Shown: in pieces, positions 1 through 8,328 of the stretch
Layout of the letters: every line of letters starts with the position of its first letter
Position numbering within the stretch: the first letter of the stretch is position 1
Assembly (NCBI RefSeq): GCF_056712565.1
Contig: NZ_JBWXXM010000005.1
DNA length: 8,328 bases
DNA from: a plasmid
Reading direction: 5' to 3' (one strand)
The notes under the pieces: model-generated
The model's database searches: none
Told to the model about the DNA's origin: nothing
Seen by the model: the letters and a program-made list of their open reading frames with translations, nothing else
Translations under genes and position numbers: made by a program

Positions 1-486
1 ACCAAGAGGCACACCAACAATAAAACTAAACATTAATGCCACAATTTTTGCCACACCTACATCGACCGCACTTTTCTCCAGCGTGATAAACAAAGGTCGC
101 CAGTTACCAGTTTCTATTGCATTTTTAAAATCAGAACCAACATCATATAGAAAAGATACTCGACTGGTGATTTTAAGCGACTTTGATATCTTCGTTAAAT
201 TCTTAGATAACTCATCATAATTAACAGACTCTAACGCATTAAAAATAGCATCCCGATCAACCTTACTGAATTTCTTATCCAGTACATTCTTATACTTTTC
301 AAATGCTGCCAGAGCTTCATCAACACCTTGAATTTTCTTTCCTTTAGACTTTTCCGCTAAATCCTGAGCAATTTTTGCGTATTTTTCTCCATATTGTTCG
401 GTTATATATTGATAAAATCCAACCATAGTATCAACAGCATCTTTTATCTGGCTCTTTTCAAGAGCATCCTGAGCTTCTTTTAATTT
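1..486 (-). CDS. cka: Pore-forming (channel) domain segment of the colicin gene, open to the window start but out of frame with the upstream part; partial at window edge
   Basis: Reverse-complement translation in the frame whose codons occupy (3,2,1),(6,5,4)... is stop-free from 498 down to 1: [166 protein letters not shown]. This matches the colicin E1/Ia/K/5/10 channel domain as I recall it (not searched). That frame has a stop at 499..501, so it cannot join the upstream ORF without a 1-nt correction. Confidence 0.85.
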
Positions 487-1556
487 CTGCTCTGCCTCTT
501 AACCTCAGCGGCCTTACCATCCCTGAAACTAACAGCATTCTTAAGTTCATTTTCAACTGCGGAGTACTCAGCCTGCTTAGCTTCAAGCTGACGCTGTAGT
601 TTTTTCTGAACGTCACGCCATCCCGGAAATCCGGTGACCTTCACGTCAACACTCTTCTGAGCGTTTTCAAGCTCTCCTGCAACTCTGGAAACAGTAGCTT
701 GCTTACTCTGTACATCACTTTCAGCCTTCGCCAGTTCAGCTTTCGCCTCAGCTAAACGCTTCTCTGCTTCCGCCACCGCCTGTTTCTCTTCATTAAGAGT
801 TTCATGTTCAGCGACCTCTGCATTTTCACGAGCCTTTTCTTCAGCTTCCTTCTGTTTATTCACATCACCAATTTTACTTTGCAATGTATTTTTATAAGAA
901 TTAAGTTTGCTAATATCTGCATCAAGCTGATTTGATTTTTTTTGCAACTCATCAACATCCCTCTCAAGATCAGTGATACCATGATAAGAATGATGCTTGA
1001 ATACTTTTTTCATCTCCTCGATTTTCTTCTGTTTTTCACTAATCTGTGTAGCAATTTTATTCTTCTGCTTTTGTTTTTCATTAATTACATTACCCACCAC
1101 CTTCGAACTCTTATCCATATCACTGACCTGAGCATTCGTTGGTGCAGTATTAACTGAAGCAGTGTTATTGTTGTTATTTCCTGAGCTTTCTGCAAAAAGT
1201 GATGGCATATCACTAATTAAAGAATTAAGAACTCTGGAGACCCCTCCAAATGGATTATCAACCAGAGTTGAATTATCTTCTGTCATAACAATACCATTCA
1301 TCACCGGAAGGCCATCATTATTAATGACAACATCACCCCACGGAGTCAGATATGACTCACCGGTTTTCATCACAGTTGATGTAGAACCAGATGAATTTGA
1401 ATTTCCCTGACCACCATTATTACCATGCCCAGAGCCACCACCCCAGTGAACCCCACTATTACTATTATTATTTCCACCTTGCTGATTCAGATTCGCCCCT
1501 GTTCCCCCCATAGACTCACCAGCAGTTGGTCCATATCCACTTAGTTCTTTAGCCAT
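480..1556 (-). CDS. cka: Colicin, N-terminal translocation and central coiled-coil/receptor-binding part (358 codons), ending at a premature stop caused by a frameshift
   Basis: ORF track 480..1556 (-). Gly/Asn/Ser-rich N-terminus followed by [36 protein letters not shown]...[13 protein letters not shown], which closely resembles my recollection of the colicin A Tol-dependent translocation domain ([38 protein letters not shown]...RVLNSLV). A long K/E/A-rich coiled-coil follows. SD-like AGAGGA lies 7 nt upstream of the ATG (minus strand, + coords 1563..1568). Assignment to colicin K specifically is circumstantial: total length would be about 548 codons if the frameshift were repaired, and the immunity protein is 96 aa. 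Confidence 0.92.
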
Positions 1557-1600
1557 AAATTCCTCTTTGATAATTAAAACAATAAATTAAAAACAATATA

Positions 1601-1631
1601 CTGTACATATAACCACTGGTTTTATGTACAG
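1601..1631 (-). promoter_or_regulatory. Tandem overlapping LexA boxes (SOS operator) of the colicin promoter
   Basis: Minus-strand sequence CTGTACATAAAACCAGTGGTTATATGTACAG contains two overlapping CTGT-N8-(A/C)CAG motifs, the double SOS box typical of colicin promoters. It lies about 45 bp upstream of the colicin ATG. A candidate -35 TTGACA is at 1659..1664 (minus strand). Confidence 0.85.
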
Positions 1632-1796
1632 TAAAAACCTACTACTCAGCATTGTCCATGTCAAGAGCATGGATTTTCATTTTTGCAATAAGGATCACAC
1701 TATGGGGAGGCAGGCATTGAGAACGTCGAAACAGAACACCGGAGCAAATCAGGATGAGATATAAAACTGTTGGATCATGAAAAAACGGAGAACGAT

Positions 1797-2087
1797 GTGA
1801 GCAAATCACCCCGCCATAAACTGAACAAAACAGACAAACGACTTCTCGACACCCTTGTTGCTGCCGGATATGAGCATGACAAAGCCCGTGACCTCATCCA
1901 GAAACAGGTTTACACGCTGACACTGGCTGATCAGCGTCATGTGGTCAGTGAAATCAGTAATGGTGTGAATCCCACCCAGGCTTACTCGGCGGTATACCAG
2001 GCAAGACGCATTCGCCTCGCCCGTAAATATCTGAACGGTAAAAAGGTTATGGAAGAAACCGGGGAAAATACGCCCCCATCAGCGTAA
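1797..2087 (+). CDS. Hypothetical small basic protein (96 aa from GTG 1797; 105 aa if TTG 1770 is used)
   Basis: ORF track 1770..2087 (+). There is no in-frame ATG near the 5' end; GTG at 1797 is preceded by GGAG (1788..1791) at good spacing. The product is hydrophilic and basic (VSKSPRHKLNKTDKRLLDTLVAAGYEHDKARDLI...). I do not recognise a family and it could be non-coding. Confidence 0.25.
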   Translation: MSKSPRHKLNKTDKRLLDTLVAAGYEHDKARDLIQKQVYTLTLADQRHVVSEISNGVNPTQAYSAVYQARRIRLARKYLNGKKVMEETGENTPPSA

Positions 2088-3274: not shown

Positions 3275-4873
3275 TCACATCCCTATTGACGGGCCACGCC
3301 ATACCCGTGCTTCCCGTTCCTGCTCTTCATGCCAGGACCGCGCACGCTCCCGTTCCAGGCGTGCCTGCCTTTCCTGTTCATCCCTTATCTGCTGTTCGTG
3401 ATAAATAACCGACTCAAGTGGTCCACCTGCCCGGCTAATCTCTGCACCTGCTGACTCAAGTCGTCGCACTGTTCCCTCAGTTGCCCGTTCTCCTGTCGTG
3501 TCAGCTCGAACATATGCTGCAAATCCGTGAAGGCGCTCTCCCAGTCTTTCAGCCGCTGCGTATAGTCCTGCTGCAATTGCTCTAAGGCGTTCAGTAAGTG
3601 CATTTCCAGCTCTGTCATACTCACTTACTCCCTGACCAGTCTTACTGCGTTCTTCTTCTCCACCGTCCAGTTGTTTTCCCCCTTCACCCCGGACGGCAAC
3701 ACCAGAAATTTCCCGTTCCTGCCCTCGTGATACGTCACACCCCATGTTTTTTCCCGGAGTTTCGCCAGCGTCTCTTCCTGGTCCCTGATAGCCAGGATGT
3801 TCGCCGCAATCCGGCTTTCCTGCCACTGAATCAGCCCCCATGACGCCAGAAAAATCCCGCCCGTGACGCAAAGCGCCGTCAGCGACGGGTACAGTATCCG
3901 CCCTTTGACCAGCTTCCAGAGCAGCTCTTCCTGCCGCCGGGCCAGTTCGTTCTCTGTGGCGCTGAACTGCGCGTTCACGGCACTGTTCAGCGTCTCCAGT
4001 TGTTCTTTCACCGCTGCTGTGTGTGCGCTGATAGCGTCTCTGATTTTCTGCCCGTTTAAGTTCAGTTCCCTGTCTACAGACGCTTCGAGCTTCCTGAACT
4101 CGCTGTTCAGCATGTTCTCTGTAGAGACGGCACGCTCTTTCAGTTTCTTCTCGAAGTCTGTCCCCATTTGTAAAAGATTGCTCATACAGCGCCCCTTTCA
4201 GCCTGAGATTACGCCCACCCTCCGGGTCGGCGATACTGATACTGCTCCTGGTTGTCCTCACAACCTCAAAACCTGCCGCTGTAAGCGCCTCAGTGACATC
4301 CTGACGCGTTTTTAGCGCTCCGGCATGGTAAAGAGCCTCCAGTCCCCTCGTAATCGCTTCTGCGGCCTCCTGTTTCGCTTTCGGCAGATTATTCGGGGTG
4401 ACAAGTGTCCGCCTGTTCTCCGGTGCGTTCGGGTCGTGCAGCCCGTAATGGTGATTCACCAGTGTCTGCCAGGCATTGATTCGCGGACGGTCCGCTCGGT
4501 CGTAATAGGGCTGGAGCCGTTTTCCGCTCGCCAGCTCCATATTCGGGATGACAAAATTCAGCTCAAGACGCCCCTTGTCCTGGTGCTCCACCCACAGGAT
4601 GCTGTACTGATTTTTTTCAAGACCGGGCATCAGTACCCGCTCAAAGCTCTCCATCACCCTTTCACGCTCTCCCGGTGGCAGGGTCTGCTCTGCAAAAGAC
4701 AGAACCCCCGAGGTGTATTTTTTCGCAAACGGCGTGGCATCGATGAGTTCCCGCACCTCTTCGGGAGCACCCCGCAGAACTCTCGCCCCTTCCCGGTTAC
4801 GCTCCCGGCCCAGCAGGTAATCAACCGGACCACTGCCACCGCCTTTTCCCCTGGCATGAAACTTAACTATCAT
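3275..4873 (-). CDS. mbeA: Mobilization relaxase MbeA (ColE1-type, MOB HEN family)
   Basis: ORF track 3275..4900 (-). From the internal Met it reads MIVKFHARGKGGGSGPVDYLLGRERNREGA...ILWVEHQDKGRLELNFVIPNMEL...QPYYDRADRPRINAWQ, matching ColE1 MbeA as I recall it. The ATG at 4873..4871 overlaps the mbeC stop in the usual coupled arrangement. The compositionally odd C-terminal half fits mbeB and mbeD being encoded in other frames. Confidence 0.92.
   Translation of the reverse strand: MIVKFHARGKGGGSGPVDYLLGRERNREGARVLRGAPEEVRELIDATPFAKKYTSGVLSFAEQTLPPGERERVMESFERVLMPGLEKNQYSILWVEHQDKGRLELNFVIPNMELASGKRLQPYYDRADRPRINAWQTLVNHHYGLHDPNAPENRRTLVTPNNLPKAKQEAAEAITRGLEALYHAGALKTRQDVTEALTAAGFEVVRTTRSSISIADPEGGRNLRLKGALYEQSFTNGDRLREETERACRLYREHAEQRVQEARSVCRQGTELKRAENQRRYQRTHSSGERTTGDAEQCRERAVQRHRERTGPAAGRAALEAGQRADTVPVADGALRHGRDFSGVMGADSVAGKPDCGEHPGYQGPGRDAGETPGKNMGCDVSRGQEREISGVAVRGEGGKQLDGGEEERSKTGQGVSEYDRAGNALTERLRAIAAGLYAAAERLGERLHGFAAYVRADTTGERATEGTVRRLESAGAEISRAGGPLESVIYHEQQIRDEQERQARLERERARSWHEEQEREARVWRGPSIGM
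3385..3618 (-). CDS. mbeD: Mobilization protein MbeD, nested within the 3' part of mbeA in another frame
   Basis: ORF track 3385..3624 (-), product M(S)MTELEMHLLNALEQLQQDYTQRLKDWESAFTDLQHMFELTRQENGQLREQCDDLSQQVQRLAGQVDHLSRLF. ATG at 3618 with GGGAG upstream; an alternative GTG at 3624 abuts the mbeB stop. Confidence 0.75.
   Translation of the reverse strand: MTELEMHLLNALEQLQQDYTQRLKDWESAFTDLQHMFELTRQENGQLREQCDDLSQQVQRLAGQVDHLSRLFITNSR
3625..4185 (-). CDS. mbeB: Mobilization protein MbeB, nested within mbeA in another frame
   Basis: ORF track 3625..4185 (-), product MSNLLQMGTDFEKKLKERAVSTENMLNSEFRKLEASVDREL... with a hydrophobic segment (LYPSLTALCVTGGIFLASWGLI). SD-like AAAGGGG upstream of the ATG. 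The stop abuts the mbeD start. Confidence 0.8.
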   Translation of the reverse strand: MSNLLQMGTDFEKKLKERAVSTENMLNSEFRKLEASVDRELNLNGQKIRDAISAHTAAVKEQLETLNSAVNAQFSATENELARRQEELLWKLVKGRILYPSLTALCVTGGIFLASWGLIQWQESRIAANILAIRDQEETLAKLREKTWGVTYHEGRNGKFLVLPSGVKGENNWTVEKKNAVRLVRE

Positions 4874-5210
4874 CCCGTTCTCCCTGTTTACGGACCTCAT
4901 CCCTCAGCTCACTCAGTTCACGTCCGATGGCCATCAGTGCAGCCACCACATGAACCCGGTCATGCCCCGACCACTGTCCGCTGTTTATCTTCCGGGCTAT
5001 CTGATTCAGGTTATTGCCGACCGAAGCGAACTGGCGCAACAGCGGCGGTGCCAGTGTCGGAAGACCTGACGTTTTCGATGGCGGTGCCCCCAGGCAGACC
5101 TTACGCATCCATGACGCAAGTTGTTTTCCCTCACAACGTGCCAGCAGCCGCGCATGTTCCTCATCCGTGACCCGTATCGTGAGCATCCTTTCGCGTTTCA
5201 CCGGTATCAT
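4863..5210 (-). CDS. mbeC: Mobilization accessory protein MbeC (relaxosome component)
   Basis: ORF track 4863..5363 (-). The conserved part MLTIRVTDEEHARLLARCEGKQLASWMRKVCLG...LAPPLLRQFASVGNNLNQIARKINSG...HVVAALMAIGRELSELR matches ColE1 MbeC/MobC as I recall it. Start chosen at ATG 5210 (GGAGG 7 nt upstream); ATG 5186 is an alternative. The first 52 codons of the track ORF are treated as spurious. Confidence 0.85.
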   Translation of the reverse strand: MIPVKRERMLTIRVTDEEHARLLARCEGKQLASWMRKVCLGAPPSKTSGLPTLAPPLLRQFASVGNNLNQIARKINSGQWSGHDRVHVVAALMAIGRELSELRDEVRKQGERDDS

Positions 5211-5253
5211 TAAAAACCTCCGACAGACTCCCCACACATGGAGAAACAGAACT

Positions 5254-5445
5254 GTGACTAAACAGGAAAAAACCGCCCTTAACATGGCCCGCTTCATCAG
5301 AAGCCAGACGCTGACCCTGCTGGAAAAACTGAATGAACTGGACGCCGACGACCAGGCTGACATCTGCGAAGCGCTTCACGACCACGCTGACGAGCTTTAC
5401 CGCAGCTGCCTCGCACGCTTCGGAGATGACGGTGAAAACCTCTGA
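5254..5445 (+). CDS. rop: Rop/Rom RNA one modulator protein (63 aa, GTG start)
   Basis: VTKQEKTALNMARFIRSQTLTLLEKLNELDADDQADICEALHDHADELYRSCLARFGDDGENL is near-identical to ColE1/pMB1 Rop as I recall it. GTG start at 5254 with GGAG about 10 nt upstream. The ORF-track entry 5014..5445 is an in-frame upstream extension with no support. Confidence 0.93.
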   Translation: MTKQEKTALNMARFIRSQTLTLLEKLNELDADDQADICEALHDHADELYRSCLARFGDDGENL

Positions 5446-5535
5446 CACATGCAGCTCCCGGAGACGGTCACAGCTGGCCTGTGAGCGGATGCCGGGAGCA
5501 GACAAGCCCGTCAGGGCGCGTCAGCGGGTTTTAGC

Positions 5536-5600
5536 GGGTGTCGGGGCGCAGCCATGACCCAGTCACGTAGCGATAGCGGAGTGTATACTGGCTTAATCAT
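5536..5600. other. bom / oriT region (basis of mobility) with relaxase nic region
   Basis: Sequence gggtgtcggggcgcagccatgacccagtcacgtagcgatagcggagtgtatactggcttaa corresponds to the pMB1/ColE1 bom region as I recall it, including the ...TATACTGGCTTAA... nic region. It sits between rop and the origin as in pBR322. Confidence 0.6.
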
Positions 5601-6253
5601 TTGGCATCAGTGAGGATTGTATGAAAAGTGCACCATGCCGGGTGTGAAATGCCGCACAGATGCGTAAGGAGAAAATGCTCGTCCAGGCGCTTTTCCGCTT
5701 CCTCGCTCACTGACTCGCTCCGCTCGGTCGTTCGGCTGCGGCGAGCGGTATCAGCTCACTCAAAGACGGTAATGCGGTTATCCACAGAATCAGGGGATAA
5801 CACCAAAAGAAACATGTGAGCAAAAAACAAGAACCCGGAAAAGGCCACGCAGCTGGCGTTTTTCCATAGGCTCCGCCCCCCTGACGAGCATCACAAAAAC
5901 CGACGCTCAAGTCAGAGGTGGCGAAACCCGACAGGACTTAAAGATACCAGGCGTTTCCCCCTGGTGGCTCCCTCGTGCGCTCTCCTGTTCCGACCCTGCC
6001 GCTTACCGGATACCTGTCCGCCTTTCTCCCTTTGGGAAGCGTGGCGCTTTCTCATAGCTCACGCTGTTGGTATCTCAGTTCGGTGTAGGTCGTTCGCTCC
6101 AAGCTGGGCTGTGTGCACGAACCCCCCGTTCAGCCCGACCGCTGCGCCTTATCCGGTAACTATCGTCTTGAGTCCAACCCGGTAAGACACGACTTAACGC
6201 CACTGGCAGCAGCCATTGGTAACTGGATAGTGGATTTAGATACGCAGAACTCT

Positions 6254-6281
6254 TGAAGTTGAAGCCTTATAGCGGCTACAC
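6254..6281 (+). promoter_or_regulatory. RNAI promoter (-35 TTGAAG, -10 TACACT)
   Basis: TTGAAG at 6254..6259, a 16-nt spacer, TACACT at 6276..6281, then the RNAI start about 6289. Same architecture as pMB1. Confidence 0.65.
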
Positions 6282-6288
6282 TGGAAGG

Positions 6289-6392
6289 ACAGCATTTGGT
6301 ATCTGTGCTCCACTAAAGCCAGTTACCCGGTTAAGCAGTCCCCAACTGACTTAACCTTCGACTAAACCGCCTCCCCAGGCGGTTTTTTCGTT
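6289..6392 (+). ncRNA. RNAI antisense copy-number control RNA
   Basis: Starts at ACAGCATTTGGTATCTG (pMB1 RNAI starts ACAGTATTTGGTATCTG) and ends at the hairpin plus T-run ...ccgcctccccaggcggttttttcgtt. Its promoter has -35 TTGAAG (6254..6259) and -10 TACACT (6276..6281) as in pMB1. Loop sequences differ from pMB1. Confidence 0.8.
6364..6392 (+). terminator. RNAI intrinsic terminator
   Basis: Stem aaaccgcct / aggcggttt with loop cccc, followed by a T-run (ttttttcgtt). Confidence 0.7.
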
Positions 6393-6402
6393 TACAGGCA
6401 GC

Positions 6403-6432
6403 AGATTACGCGCAGAAAAAAAGGATCTCAAG
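6403..6432 (-). promoter_or_regulatory. RNAII promoter (-35 TTGAGA, -10 TAATCT on minus strand)
   Basis: Minus-strand sequence cttcTTGAGAtcctttttttctgcgcgTAATCTgctgcctGTAAAC has a 17-nt spacer and matches the pMB1 RNAII promoter as I recall it. Confidence 0.7.
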
Positions 6433-6454
6433 AAGATCCTTTGATCTTTTCTAC

Positions 6455-6459
6455 TGAAC
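6455..6459. repeat. IS2 target-site duplication (TGAAC), right-end copy
   Basis: TGAAC immediately outside the IS2 end at 6460; an identical TGAAC lies at 7791..7795 outside the other end. IS2 is known to make 5-bp duplications. Confidence 0.85.
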
Positions 6460-6500
6460 TGGATTTGCCCCTATATTTCCAGACACCTGTTATCACTTAA
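6460..6500. repeat. IS2 terminal inverted repeat (IRR)
   Basis: Imperfect inverted repeat partner of 7749..7790; shared core CCAGACA...ATATCACTTA. Confidence 0.8.
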
Positions 6501-7376
6501 CCCATTACTGGCTTGCTGCCGTAGATATTCCCGTGGCGAGCGATAACCCAGTGCACTATGCGGATGCCATTCGTTATAATGCTCGAACGCCTCTGCAAGG
6601 TTCTTTGCTGCCGTTAACCCGTCTGGTTTGGGCATGACACTGATGTAGTCACGCTTTATCGTTTTCACGAAGCTCTCTGCTATGCCGTTACTCTCCGGAC
6701 TCCGCACCGCCGTGCTCTTCGGTTCAAGCCCCAACATCCGGGCAAACTGCCGTGTTTCATTAGCCCGGTAGCATGAACCATTATCCGTCAGCCACTCTAC
6801 TGGAGACGCCGGAAGCTCGTTGCCGAAGCGGCGTTCCACCGCTCCCAGCATGACGTCCTGTACTGTTTCACTGTTGAAGCCGCCCGTAGTGACCGCCCAG
6901 TGCAGTGCCTCACGGTCACAGCAGTCCAGCGCGAACGTGACTCGCAGTTTTTCTCCGTTATCACAGCGGAACTCGAACCCGTCAGAGCACCATCGCTGAT
7001 TACTTTCTTTCACAGCCACTCTGCCTGTATGTGCCCGTTTCGATGGCGGTACAGCAGGTTTTCGCTCAAGCAACAGCGCATTCTGGCGCATGATCCGGTA
7101 AACACGTTTGGCATTGATCGCAGGCATACCATCAAGTTCTGCCTGTCTGCGAAGCAGCGCCCATACCCGACGATAACCATACGTGGGCAGCTCTCCGATA
7201 ACATGGTGTATACGGAGAAGCACATCCGTATCATCAGTGTGACGACTGCGGCGGCCATCCATCCAGTCATCGGTTCGTCTGAGAATGACGTGCAACTGCG
7301 CACGCGACACCCGGAGACAACGGCTGACTAAGCTTACTCCCCATCCCCGGGCAATAAGGGCGCGTGCGCTATCCAC
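6471..7376 (-). CDS. insD: IS2 transposase OrfB (InsD), normally expressed as an OrfAB fusion by -1 frameshifting
   Basis: ORF track 6471..7376 (-) 301 aa, (M/V)[33 protein letters not shown]...[12 protein letters not shown]... with a DDE-type integrase core (...[37 protein letters not shown]...). The first codon is GTG and overlaps the end of insC. Confidence 0.95.
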
Positions 7377-7699
7377 TTTTTTGCCCGTCCATATTCAACG
7401 GCTTCTTTGAGGAGTTCATTTTCCATCGTTTTCTTGCCGAGCAGGCGCTGGAGTTCTTTAATCTGCTTCATGGCGGCAGCAAGTTCAGAGGCAGGAACAA
7501 CCTGTTCTCCGGCGGCGACAGCAGTAAGACTTCCTTCCTGGTATTGCTTACGCCAGAGAAATAACTGGCTGGCTGCTACACCATGTTGCCGGGCAACGAG
7601 GGAGACCGTCATCCCTGGTTCAAAGCTCTGCTGAACAATTGCGATCTTTTCCTGTGTGGTACGCCGTCTGCGTTTCTCCGGTCCTAAGACATCAATCAT
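7334..7699 (-). CDS. insC: IS2 OrfA (InsC), helix-turn-helix regulator / N-terminal part of the transposase
   Basis: From ATG at 7699: [58 protein letters not shown]...[26 protein letters not shown]. The 15 extra N-terminal codons in the track ORF 7334..7744 are rejected. Confidence 0.93.
7377..7383 (-). other. IS2 programmed -1 ribosomal frameshift heptamer (A AAA AAG) at the insC/insD overlap
   Basis: Minus-strand sequence ggcA AAA AAG tgg is in the OrfA zero frame. A -1 slip reads AAA AAA GTG GAT AGC = KKVDS..., continuing into InsD. This is a known IS3-family mechanism. Confidence 0.7.
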
Positions 7700-7748
7700 C
7701 TGCTCTCCAATGACTAGTCTAAAAACTAGTATTAAGACTATCACTTAA

Positions 7749-7790
7749 ATAAGTGATATTGGTTGTCTGGAGATTCAGGGGGCCAGTCTA
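7749..7790. repeat. IS2 terminal inverted repeat (IRL)
   Basis: Reverse complement from 7790 reads TAGACTGGCCCCCTGAATCTCCAGACAACCAATATCACTTA... The lysis-gene reading frame terminates inside this repeat at TGA 7775..7777. Confidence 0.8.
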
Positions 7791-7918
7791 TGAACCGCGA
7801 TCCCCGTCAGTTCAGAAGACGAAGATGGTGCAACGGTTCCTCCTTGTACATCACGAATATAGTTTGCTTGACATCCTGACAAGAATAATATTGTAATTAG
7901 AAAAATTATTATTTTCAT
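7775..7918 (-). CDS. ckl: Colicin lysis (bacteriocin release) lipoprotein, with its 3' end altered by the IS2 insertion (47 codons; ends ...GIAV-HRLAP)
   Basis: Not in the ORF track (short). Reverse complement of 7793..7918 translates [42 protein letters not shown], with signal peptide, lipobox L-S-G-C and the [14 protein letters not shown] motif typical of colicin lysis proteins. Reading continues across the TSD into the IS2 IRL (H R L A P, stop TGA at 7775..7777). The displaced native end (Q codon and TAG) lies at 6451..6456 on the other side of IS2. Confidence 0.8.
7791..7795. repeat. IS2 target-site duplication (TGAAC), left-end copy
   Basis: TGAAC directly abutting the IS2 end at 7790; identical to 6455..6459. 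Confidence 0.85.
7868..7897 (+). promoter_or_regulatory. Candidate immunity-gene promoter located inside the lysis-gene coding region
   Basis: TTGACA at 7868..7873, an 18-nt spacer, TGTAAT at 7892..7897, about 50 bp upstream of the immunity ATG at 7948. Confidence 0.4.
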
Positions 7919-7947
7919 ATTTCTTTCCAACAAAAGTAAAAATACTT

Positions 7948-8238
7948 ATGCATTTAAAATACTACCTACATAATTTACCTGAATCACTTATACCATGGAT
8001 TCTTATTTTAATATTTAACGACAATGATAACACTCCTTTGTTATTTATATTTATATCATCAATACATGTATTGCTATATCCATACTCTAAATTAACCATA
8101 TCTAGATATATCAAAGAAAATACAAAGTTAAAAAAAGAACCCTGGTACTTATGCAAGTTATCTGCATTGTTTTATTTATTAATGGCAATCCCAGTAGGAT
8201 TGCCAAGTTTCATATATTACACTCTAAAGAGAAATTAA
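7948..8238 (+). CDS. cki: Pore-forming colicin immunity protein (96 aa, integral inner-membrane protein)
   Basis: ORF track 7948..8238 (+). Very AT-rich and hydrophobic (…[33 protein letters not shown]…[26 protein letters not shown]), consistent with several membrane spans. It is convergent with the colicin gene and sits between colicin and lysis genes on the opposite strand, the canonical arrangement for pore-former immunity genes. Its stop (8236..8238) overlaps the colicin stop (8235..8237). Confidence 0.8.
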
Positions 8239-8328
8239 ATCCCTAACAACTCATTAAGTTTGCTCAACTCATCATCCCCTATGTAAGAAGAAACAATACC
8301 TGTGACAATTGCAATCCCCCAGAAACCA
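8235..8328 (-). CDS. cka: C-terminal tail of the colicin gene (last 29 codons plus stop), continuing from the window start across the circular junction
   Basis: Reverse complement of 8235..8327 translates [30 protein letters not shown]-stop, the end of the hydrophobic hairpin and C-terminus of a pore-forming colicin. The stop TAA is the reverse complement of 8235..8237. Window 8325..8328 (acca) equals window 1..4 (acca), and joining 8324 to 1 gives a continuous ...[15 protein letters not shown]... reading frame. Confidence 0.75.

Follow-up and report, generated by a model that had tools for sequence, protein, structure and literature searches.

The stretch of DNA considered here, 8,328 nucleotides long and called the window throughout, is a complete ColK-type, ColE1-like plasmid. 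Its backbone is 99.9-100% identical to those of the 6988-bp colicin K plasmids that are free of insertion sequences (e.g., CP054461.1) and to that of CP088446.1, and it shares 99.4-99.9% identity with the backbone of pColK-K235 (NC_006881.1), the reference ColK plasmid, which carries an IS2. The replicon (window 5364-6459) is 100% identical to that of CP088446.1, a relative with no IS2 at this site, and shows no compensatory change. The colicin gene cka (window 480-1556) has a 1-bp deletion near 499-501 with respect to every relative, including an IS2-bearing contig that is otherwise identical; the truncated ORF is 358 aa long, as against 548 aa for colicin K, and has lost the pore-forming domain. 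Either the mutation is a genuine one, inactivating and private to this plasmid, or a short A/T run was misread in sequencing. In CP088446.1 (1220-5385), ISEcp1-blaCTX-M-14 lies between ckl and cki, and in NZ_CP062872.1 (2350-5050) ISCro1 adjoins exc2; mobile elements have landed on this small colicin plasmid time and again.

The IS2 of the window is complete (6460..7790, minus strand; 1331 bp), as defined by its ends, its ORFs and its profile matches. The imperfect terminal repeats of the element (TGGATTTGCC... / TAGACTGGCC...) are both present, with the lengths of 41 and 42 bp described for IS2 (PMC3299598). The right inverted repeat, IRR, occupies 6460..6500 on the minus strand and turns its outer tip (6460) toward the promoter of the replication primer RNAII, while the left inverted repeat, IRL (7749..7790, minus strand), abuts the truncated end of the lysis gene ckl. 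Both ends are canonical (IRR TGGATTTGCCCC..., IRL TAGACTGGCCCCC...). On the same strand, orfA, or insC (7334..7699, 121 aa), overlaps orfB, or insD (6471..7376, 301 aa), with an A6G -1 frameshift window recognizable in the sequence at 7382..7376; the stop codon of orfB is 11 bp inside the IRR tip. The two products score above the NCBIfam cut-offs for IS2 TnpA (276 bits vs. 229) and TnpB (713 bits vs. 597), and many copies in E. coli, on chromosomes as well as on plasmids, match the entire element at 100% identity. The reference plasmid pColK-K235 shares the backbone and also has one IS2, but it is a different isoform (97.6% identity, 32 mismatches over 1334 bp) at a different site, equivalent to window 1879-1884 and some 320 bp ahead of the point where cka begins. 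Because both site and isoform differ, the two insertions are independent, and IS2 has entered ColK plasmids on at least two occasions.

Comparison with the IS2-free plasmid places the insertion precisely. The pentanucleotide TGAAC, present there as a single copy, is duplicated on either side of the element in the window (promoter-side copy 6455..6459; ckl-side copy 7791..7795), and the insertion point falls in the last sense codon of ckl. As a result, the reading frame of the lysis gene now runs into the IS2 IRL, from which its tail is read: the chimeric ckl (7775..7918, minus strand) encodes 47 aa instead of the native 43, with the C-terminus ..GIAVHRLAP* replacing ..GIAVQ*. The gene is also separated by 1.3 kb (1331 bp of IS2 plus the 5-bp duplication) from the hairpin that immediately follows it in the ancestral plasmid. 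In ColE7, the 3′ hairpin of the lysis gene has been suggested to stabilize the lysis mRNA (PMC2896534). The window plasmid may differ in lysis and in the release of colicin, and the consequences of IS2 are likelier to fall on the lysis gene and the colicin operon than on copy control.

On the other side of the element lies the replicon. RNAI, the antisense regulator of copy number, is found at 6291..6391 on the plus strand as a full-length match to Rfam RF00106 (77.4 bits, E 2.3e-13; gathering score 47). The RNAII promoter is on the minus strand, with a -35 hexamer TTGAGA at 6426..6431 and, after a 17-bp spacer, a -10 hexamer TAATCT at 6403..6408, both recognized in the sequence and by identity to ColE1. 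An RNAI match with its three stem-loops and an RNAII promoter opposite the RNAI 3′ end are thus both present, as in plasmids of the ColE1 type. We take RNAII +1 to be near 6395, a position assumed from homology to ColE1, from established knowledge of that replicon and from the RNAI 3′ end. With RNAI on the plus strand, RNAII is on the minus strand, the direction in which insC and insD also run; the earlier note had said as much, and the two ORFs, both on the minus strand, bear it out. It had also put the IS2 end 27 bp from the -35. The IS2 end at 6460 is right, but the hexamer had been placed one base off (6427..6432), and the gap is 28 bp (6432-6459). Its third measurement, a lysis stop codon some 20 bp from the promoter before the insertion, agrees with the 19 bp that separate the TAG from TTGAGA in both the IS2-free ColK plasmids and ColE1. 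Thanks to the target-site duplication, the native sequence of the promoter region is kept up to -64 relative to RNAII +1, the IRR tip being located at -65. Since only one insertion event is involved, no statistical claim can be attached to the proximity of the element to the promoter.

Would the IS2 end itself supply a promoter? The right end of IS2 carries an outward -35 (PMC3219604), and fusion promoters made in this way have been created at ampC, acrEF and neoR (PMC9330008). The earlier note had proposed an outward hybrid promoter at the IS2 end; such a promoter would join the -35 of the IRR to a -10 in the flank and fire toward RNAII, as in the IS2-ampC case. In those fusions as in the window, the same element turns its right end outward beside a host promoter region (PMC9330008). 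The minicircle-junction promoter of IS2, formed with a 1-bp junction spacer, has however a mandatory 17-bp spacing (PMC3299598; PMC3219604). By this geometry the outward -35 would be TGGAAA at 6476..6481 (minus strand), 16 bp from the IRR tip, and the hexamer that it faces at 17 bp is TTCAGT, with 3/6 matches to a -10 and without the key A at position 2. Those at 16 and 18 bp (GTTCAG and TCAGTA) are no better, none of the three having a TAnnnT core. A standard promoter scan gave no match at the IS2-flank junction. Under relaxed criteria (at least 7/12 matches, A2 and T6 in the -10, spacer of 15-19 bp), minus-strand positions 6560 to 6380 yielded the RNAII promoter as the sole match, with no TAnnnT hexamer anywhere ahead of the RNAII -10 in this range. 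At ampC, acrEF and neoR, the IS2 -35 stands 17 bp from a usable -10; the window offers no such hexamer, and the host promoter keeps its own -35. A hybrid outward promoter is for these reasons rejected, and that one nevertheless drives transcription toward RNAII seems exceedingly improbable.

Between the IS2 tip and the RNAII start lies a feature that, like the insertion into the ckl codon, was absent from the earlier note: a terminator-like hairpin, AAAGGATCTTCTTGAGATCCTTT, followed by a U-run of 7 T at 6422..6416 (6416..6442 in all, minus strand), identified by terminator scan and by folding. According to the scan, it consists of a 10-pair stem and a 3-nt loop, directly followed by the 7 U. 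When the A-tract before it is included, the folding energy is -18.2 kcal/mol (z -3.7), a value that none of 200 shuffled sequences equals; the core stem alone reaches -10.1 kcal/mol, vs. -12.5 for the RNAI terminator of the same window. In its native setting the hairpin closes the colicin operon on the 3′ side, being located immediately 3′ of the lysis gene in the ancestral plasmid, and a corresponding “T2” terminator hairpin is described at the 3′ end of the lysis gene in ColE7 (PMC2896534). It is conserved across ColE1-like plasmids. When 8 divergent plasmids are aligned, one double change, from G-C to U-G, and some wobble changes keep the pairs, while three of the sequences have a pair broken, a variation too sparse to show covariation. 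Hairpin and U-run physically overlap the -35 and the spacer of the RNAII promoter, and conservation is confounded with that of the -35. Transcripts stopping in the U-run are predicted to end about 21 nt before RNAII +1. Leakage is conceivable, the stem being rich in A/U and having 3 G-C pairs. On the plus strand, the same palindrome (window 6420-6442) also scores as terminator-like, with the tail GATCTTTTCT; the A- and T-tracts on its flanks may make it bidirectional.

This hairpin bears directly on the read-through proposed in the earlier note, in which transposase transcripts yield a 5′-extended RNAII and shift copy number. In full, the model has transcription that starts in IS2, or in a colicin operon induced by SOS and now read through the element, leak past the hairpin; the extended RNAII would then prime replication and raise or deregulate copy number. 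Transcription of IS2 and RNAII is indeed co-directional, and the rate of RNAII synthesis sets copy number (PMC9263177). Two sources can be named. The promoter of IS2 itself is weak and repressed by OrfA (PMC3299598). The second is the colicin operon: although the exact LexA-box pattern had no match, a pair of LexA-box-like sequences, each 1-2 bases off the consensus, is found upstream of cka, and the operon is probably SOS-inducible. The cka promoter that bears these boxes (window ~1600-1655, minus strand) now drives sense transcription into IS2 from the 7699-7790 side, and SOS induction could in this way raise transposase mRNA. On the minus strand from cka to RNAII, cka-ckl interval included, the hairpin was the only terminator-like site that scanning brought up, so that SOS-induced transcription could reach it in quantity. 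Rho-dependent termination within IS2 was considered as an additional barrier and dropped, the sense RNA being G-rich rather than C-rich and hence not rut-like. In the absence of another terminator-like site and of a Rho argument, the hairpin and its U-run are the only predicted barrier.

They nevertheless stand squarely in the path of read-through, a hairpin and U7 at 6442..6416 that every such transcript has to cross. Moreover, all ColK and ColE1 plasmids without IS2 have this barrier and are already open to read-through from the operon in the same way; being ancestral, this exposure leaves IS2 little to add. The replicon is without compensatory change, and pBR322 and pUC tolerate a closer transposon end together with a co-directional gene. 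As for the suggestion that extended transcripts would escape RNAI, the predicted folds give no indication of it: in minimum-free-energy structures, the RNAII stem-loops I-III, which are the predicted targets of RNAI, are left unchanged by 5′ extensions of 36-205 nt, and the long-range pairing with RNAII nt ~100-108 that appears with the 125- and 205-nt extensions is regarded as unreliable. A literature search for read-through into RNAII, or for a ColE1 kil terminator overlapping the primer promoter, found nothing direct in the papers covered. The earlier note was right about the geometry (but for the base mentioned above), about co-direction and about the layout before the insertion, while its mechanism is possible only through leakage of the terminator and is not favoured; on balance, we consider read-through that alters copy number unlikely. 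A bolder version would make IS2 the last cistron of an SOS-inducible colicin operon, so that DNA damage would have the transposase genes transcribed in the sense direction; a leaky hairpin would then couple SOS to transposition and to a burst of replication, and IS2 would re-tune the way in which colicin induction is ancestrally tied to copy number. This we regard as quite unlikely.

Two further ways in which IS2 might act on RNAII call for no extended primer. The first is transcriptional interference: polymerases coming from the element or the operon would terminate inside the RNAII promoter, whose spacer holds the U-run, and would transiently occlude it and lower RNAII initiation, IS2 changing the number of arrivals. 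The physical overlap of hairpin and U-run with the -35 and spacer lends itself to such an effect, as does an upstream operon that is probably SOS-inducible. The overlap is however ancestral and unaltered by IS2, and the frameshift in the window's own cka would make any effect specific to this strain, so that interference is rather improbable here. The second concerns the upstream context, in which an IRR lying beyond -64, a transposase-binding end with a bend of its own, would modulate the RNAII promoter without any new transcript. IS2 ends are bound by OrfAB and have a predicted curvature (PMC3299598), and the IRR tip is as near as -65. Yet the duplication preserves the native sequence to -64, while other ColE1-like plasmids already have unrelated DNA from about -50 to -56, and pUC from -60, which makes a contribution of this kind very unlikely.

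How the same boundary is built in relatives is instructive. The arrangement of a lysis stop codon, 19 bp and TTGAGA is found in ColE1 and in 1286 PLSDB records. In ColE1-like plasmids without a lysis gene, homology starts at the foot of the hairpin, where unrelated DNA abuts, and in some ColE1-like plasmids co-directional genes end a few tens of base pairs upstream of it. Hairpin and promoter therefore behave as the left edge of the replicon module, and a co-directional neighbor is the rule in the family. Native ColE1 and ColK have the same hairpin, U-run, promoter and RNAI as the window, with the lysis stop 19 bp from TTGAGA; in the window, the lysis gene and the hairpin are set apart by IS2 and the 5 duplicated bp, and the lysis C-terminus is altered.

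The closest analogy is with the cloning vectors pBR322 and pUC, in which the terminal repeat of a transposable element also sits at this module boundary, with an identical hairpin, U-run and promoter in between, and in which bla is co-directional with RNAII just as insC and insD are here. The vector junction (...GACCCC|GTAGAAAAGATC...) falls on the pentanucleotide next to the IS2 target, and 56 PLSDB records contain it at 100% identity in the form ...GACCCC|GTAGAAAAGATCAAAGGATC... The flank at this junction is presumably the 38-bp terminal repeat of Tn3. It ends 23 bp from the -35, 5 bp closer than the 28 bp of IS2 in the window. The two cases differ in that 147 bp lie between the Tn3 tip and the end of bla, a gene with a terminator of its own, but 11 bp between the IS2 tip and the end of insD. 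The homology breakpoints of many ColE1-like plasmids lie within ~15 bp of the pentanucleotide at the vector junction (window 6450-6459; vector record 1343-1355); it may be that modules meet just upstream of the hairpin, or that insertions are tolerated there.

The principle behind the earlier note has been illustrated by engineered replicons. In work by Panayotatos in 1984, the priming promoter was reportedly replaced, and the amount of RNAII set the copy number. The same holds for pUC-pTet, where the RNAII made from an engineered upstream promoter determines copy number (PMC9263177). In such constructs, however, the native promoter is removed and no terminator stands in the path, while the window keeps both its native promoter and the hairpin.

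The insertion allele is rare. The junction of IS2 with this flank was absent at a coverage of at least 80% from the 72,556 plasmids of PLSDB and from 5,426 complete E. coli genomes, and the allele was found only through its chimeric lysis protein. This 47-aa Ckl, a marker of the insertion, occurs in 5 NCBI contigs of up to 8325 bp, which are named E. coli and Salmonella enterica, and one of these contigs is 100% identical to window 4775-8328. By comparison, the native 43-aa Ckl is found in at least 993 contigs. The allele is thus rare but maintained under more than one host species name, which fits a functional replicon.

Taken together, the data are best explained by an ordinary transposition of IS2 into a ColK plasmid, at the boundary between colicin operon and replicon, with copy control remaining essentially that of the IS2-free plasmid, a reading to which we give a probability of roughly 70%. 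All of the components are of known kinds; it is the insertion allele that is new. IS2 inserted with a 5-bp duplication into the last sense codon of ckl, upstream of the operon hairpin and its U-run. The lysis protein thereby gains its new C-terminal tail, the ckl mRNA would lose its adjacent 3′ hairpin, now 1.3 kb away, and operon transcription would enter IS2 in the sense direction. Either of two promoters would feed the transcripts that leave the element: its own, which is weak and under repression by OrfA, or that of cka further upstream, which is probably inducible by SOS. The 3′ hairpin and U-run are physically merged with the RNAII primer promoter, and most of these transcripts would be expected to stop in the U-run, ~21 nt before RNAII +1, leaving RNAI/RNAII copy control to work essentially as it does in the IS2-free plasmid. 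IS2 would then be a passenger at the operon/replicon boundary, and an intact promoter, shielded by a predicted terminator hairpin, has probably kept replication control unaffected.

The significance of the allele itself is small: it is a second, independent IS2 insertion in ColK, and a small number of E. coli and Salmonella isolates carry it. Should the hairpin prove leaky, the plasmid would offer a natural test case for upstream transcription feeding RNAII, a principle already set by the engineered priming promoters. What the locus illustrates more broadly is how the ColE1 replicon appears to be shielded, in that foreign DNA, including the Tn3 end of pBR322 and pUC, can be joined at the foot of the hairpin without touching replication control.
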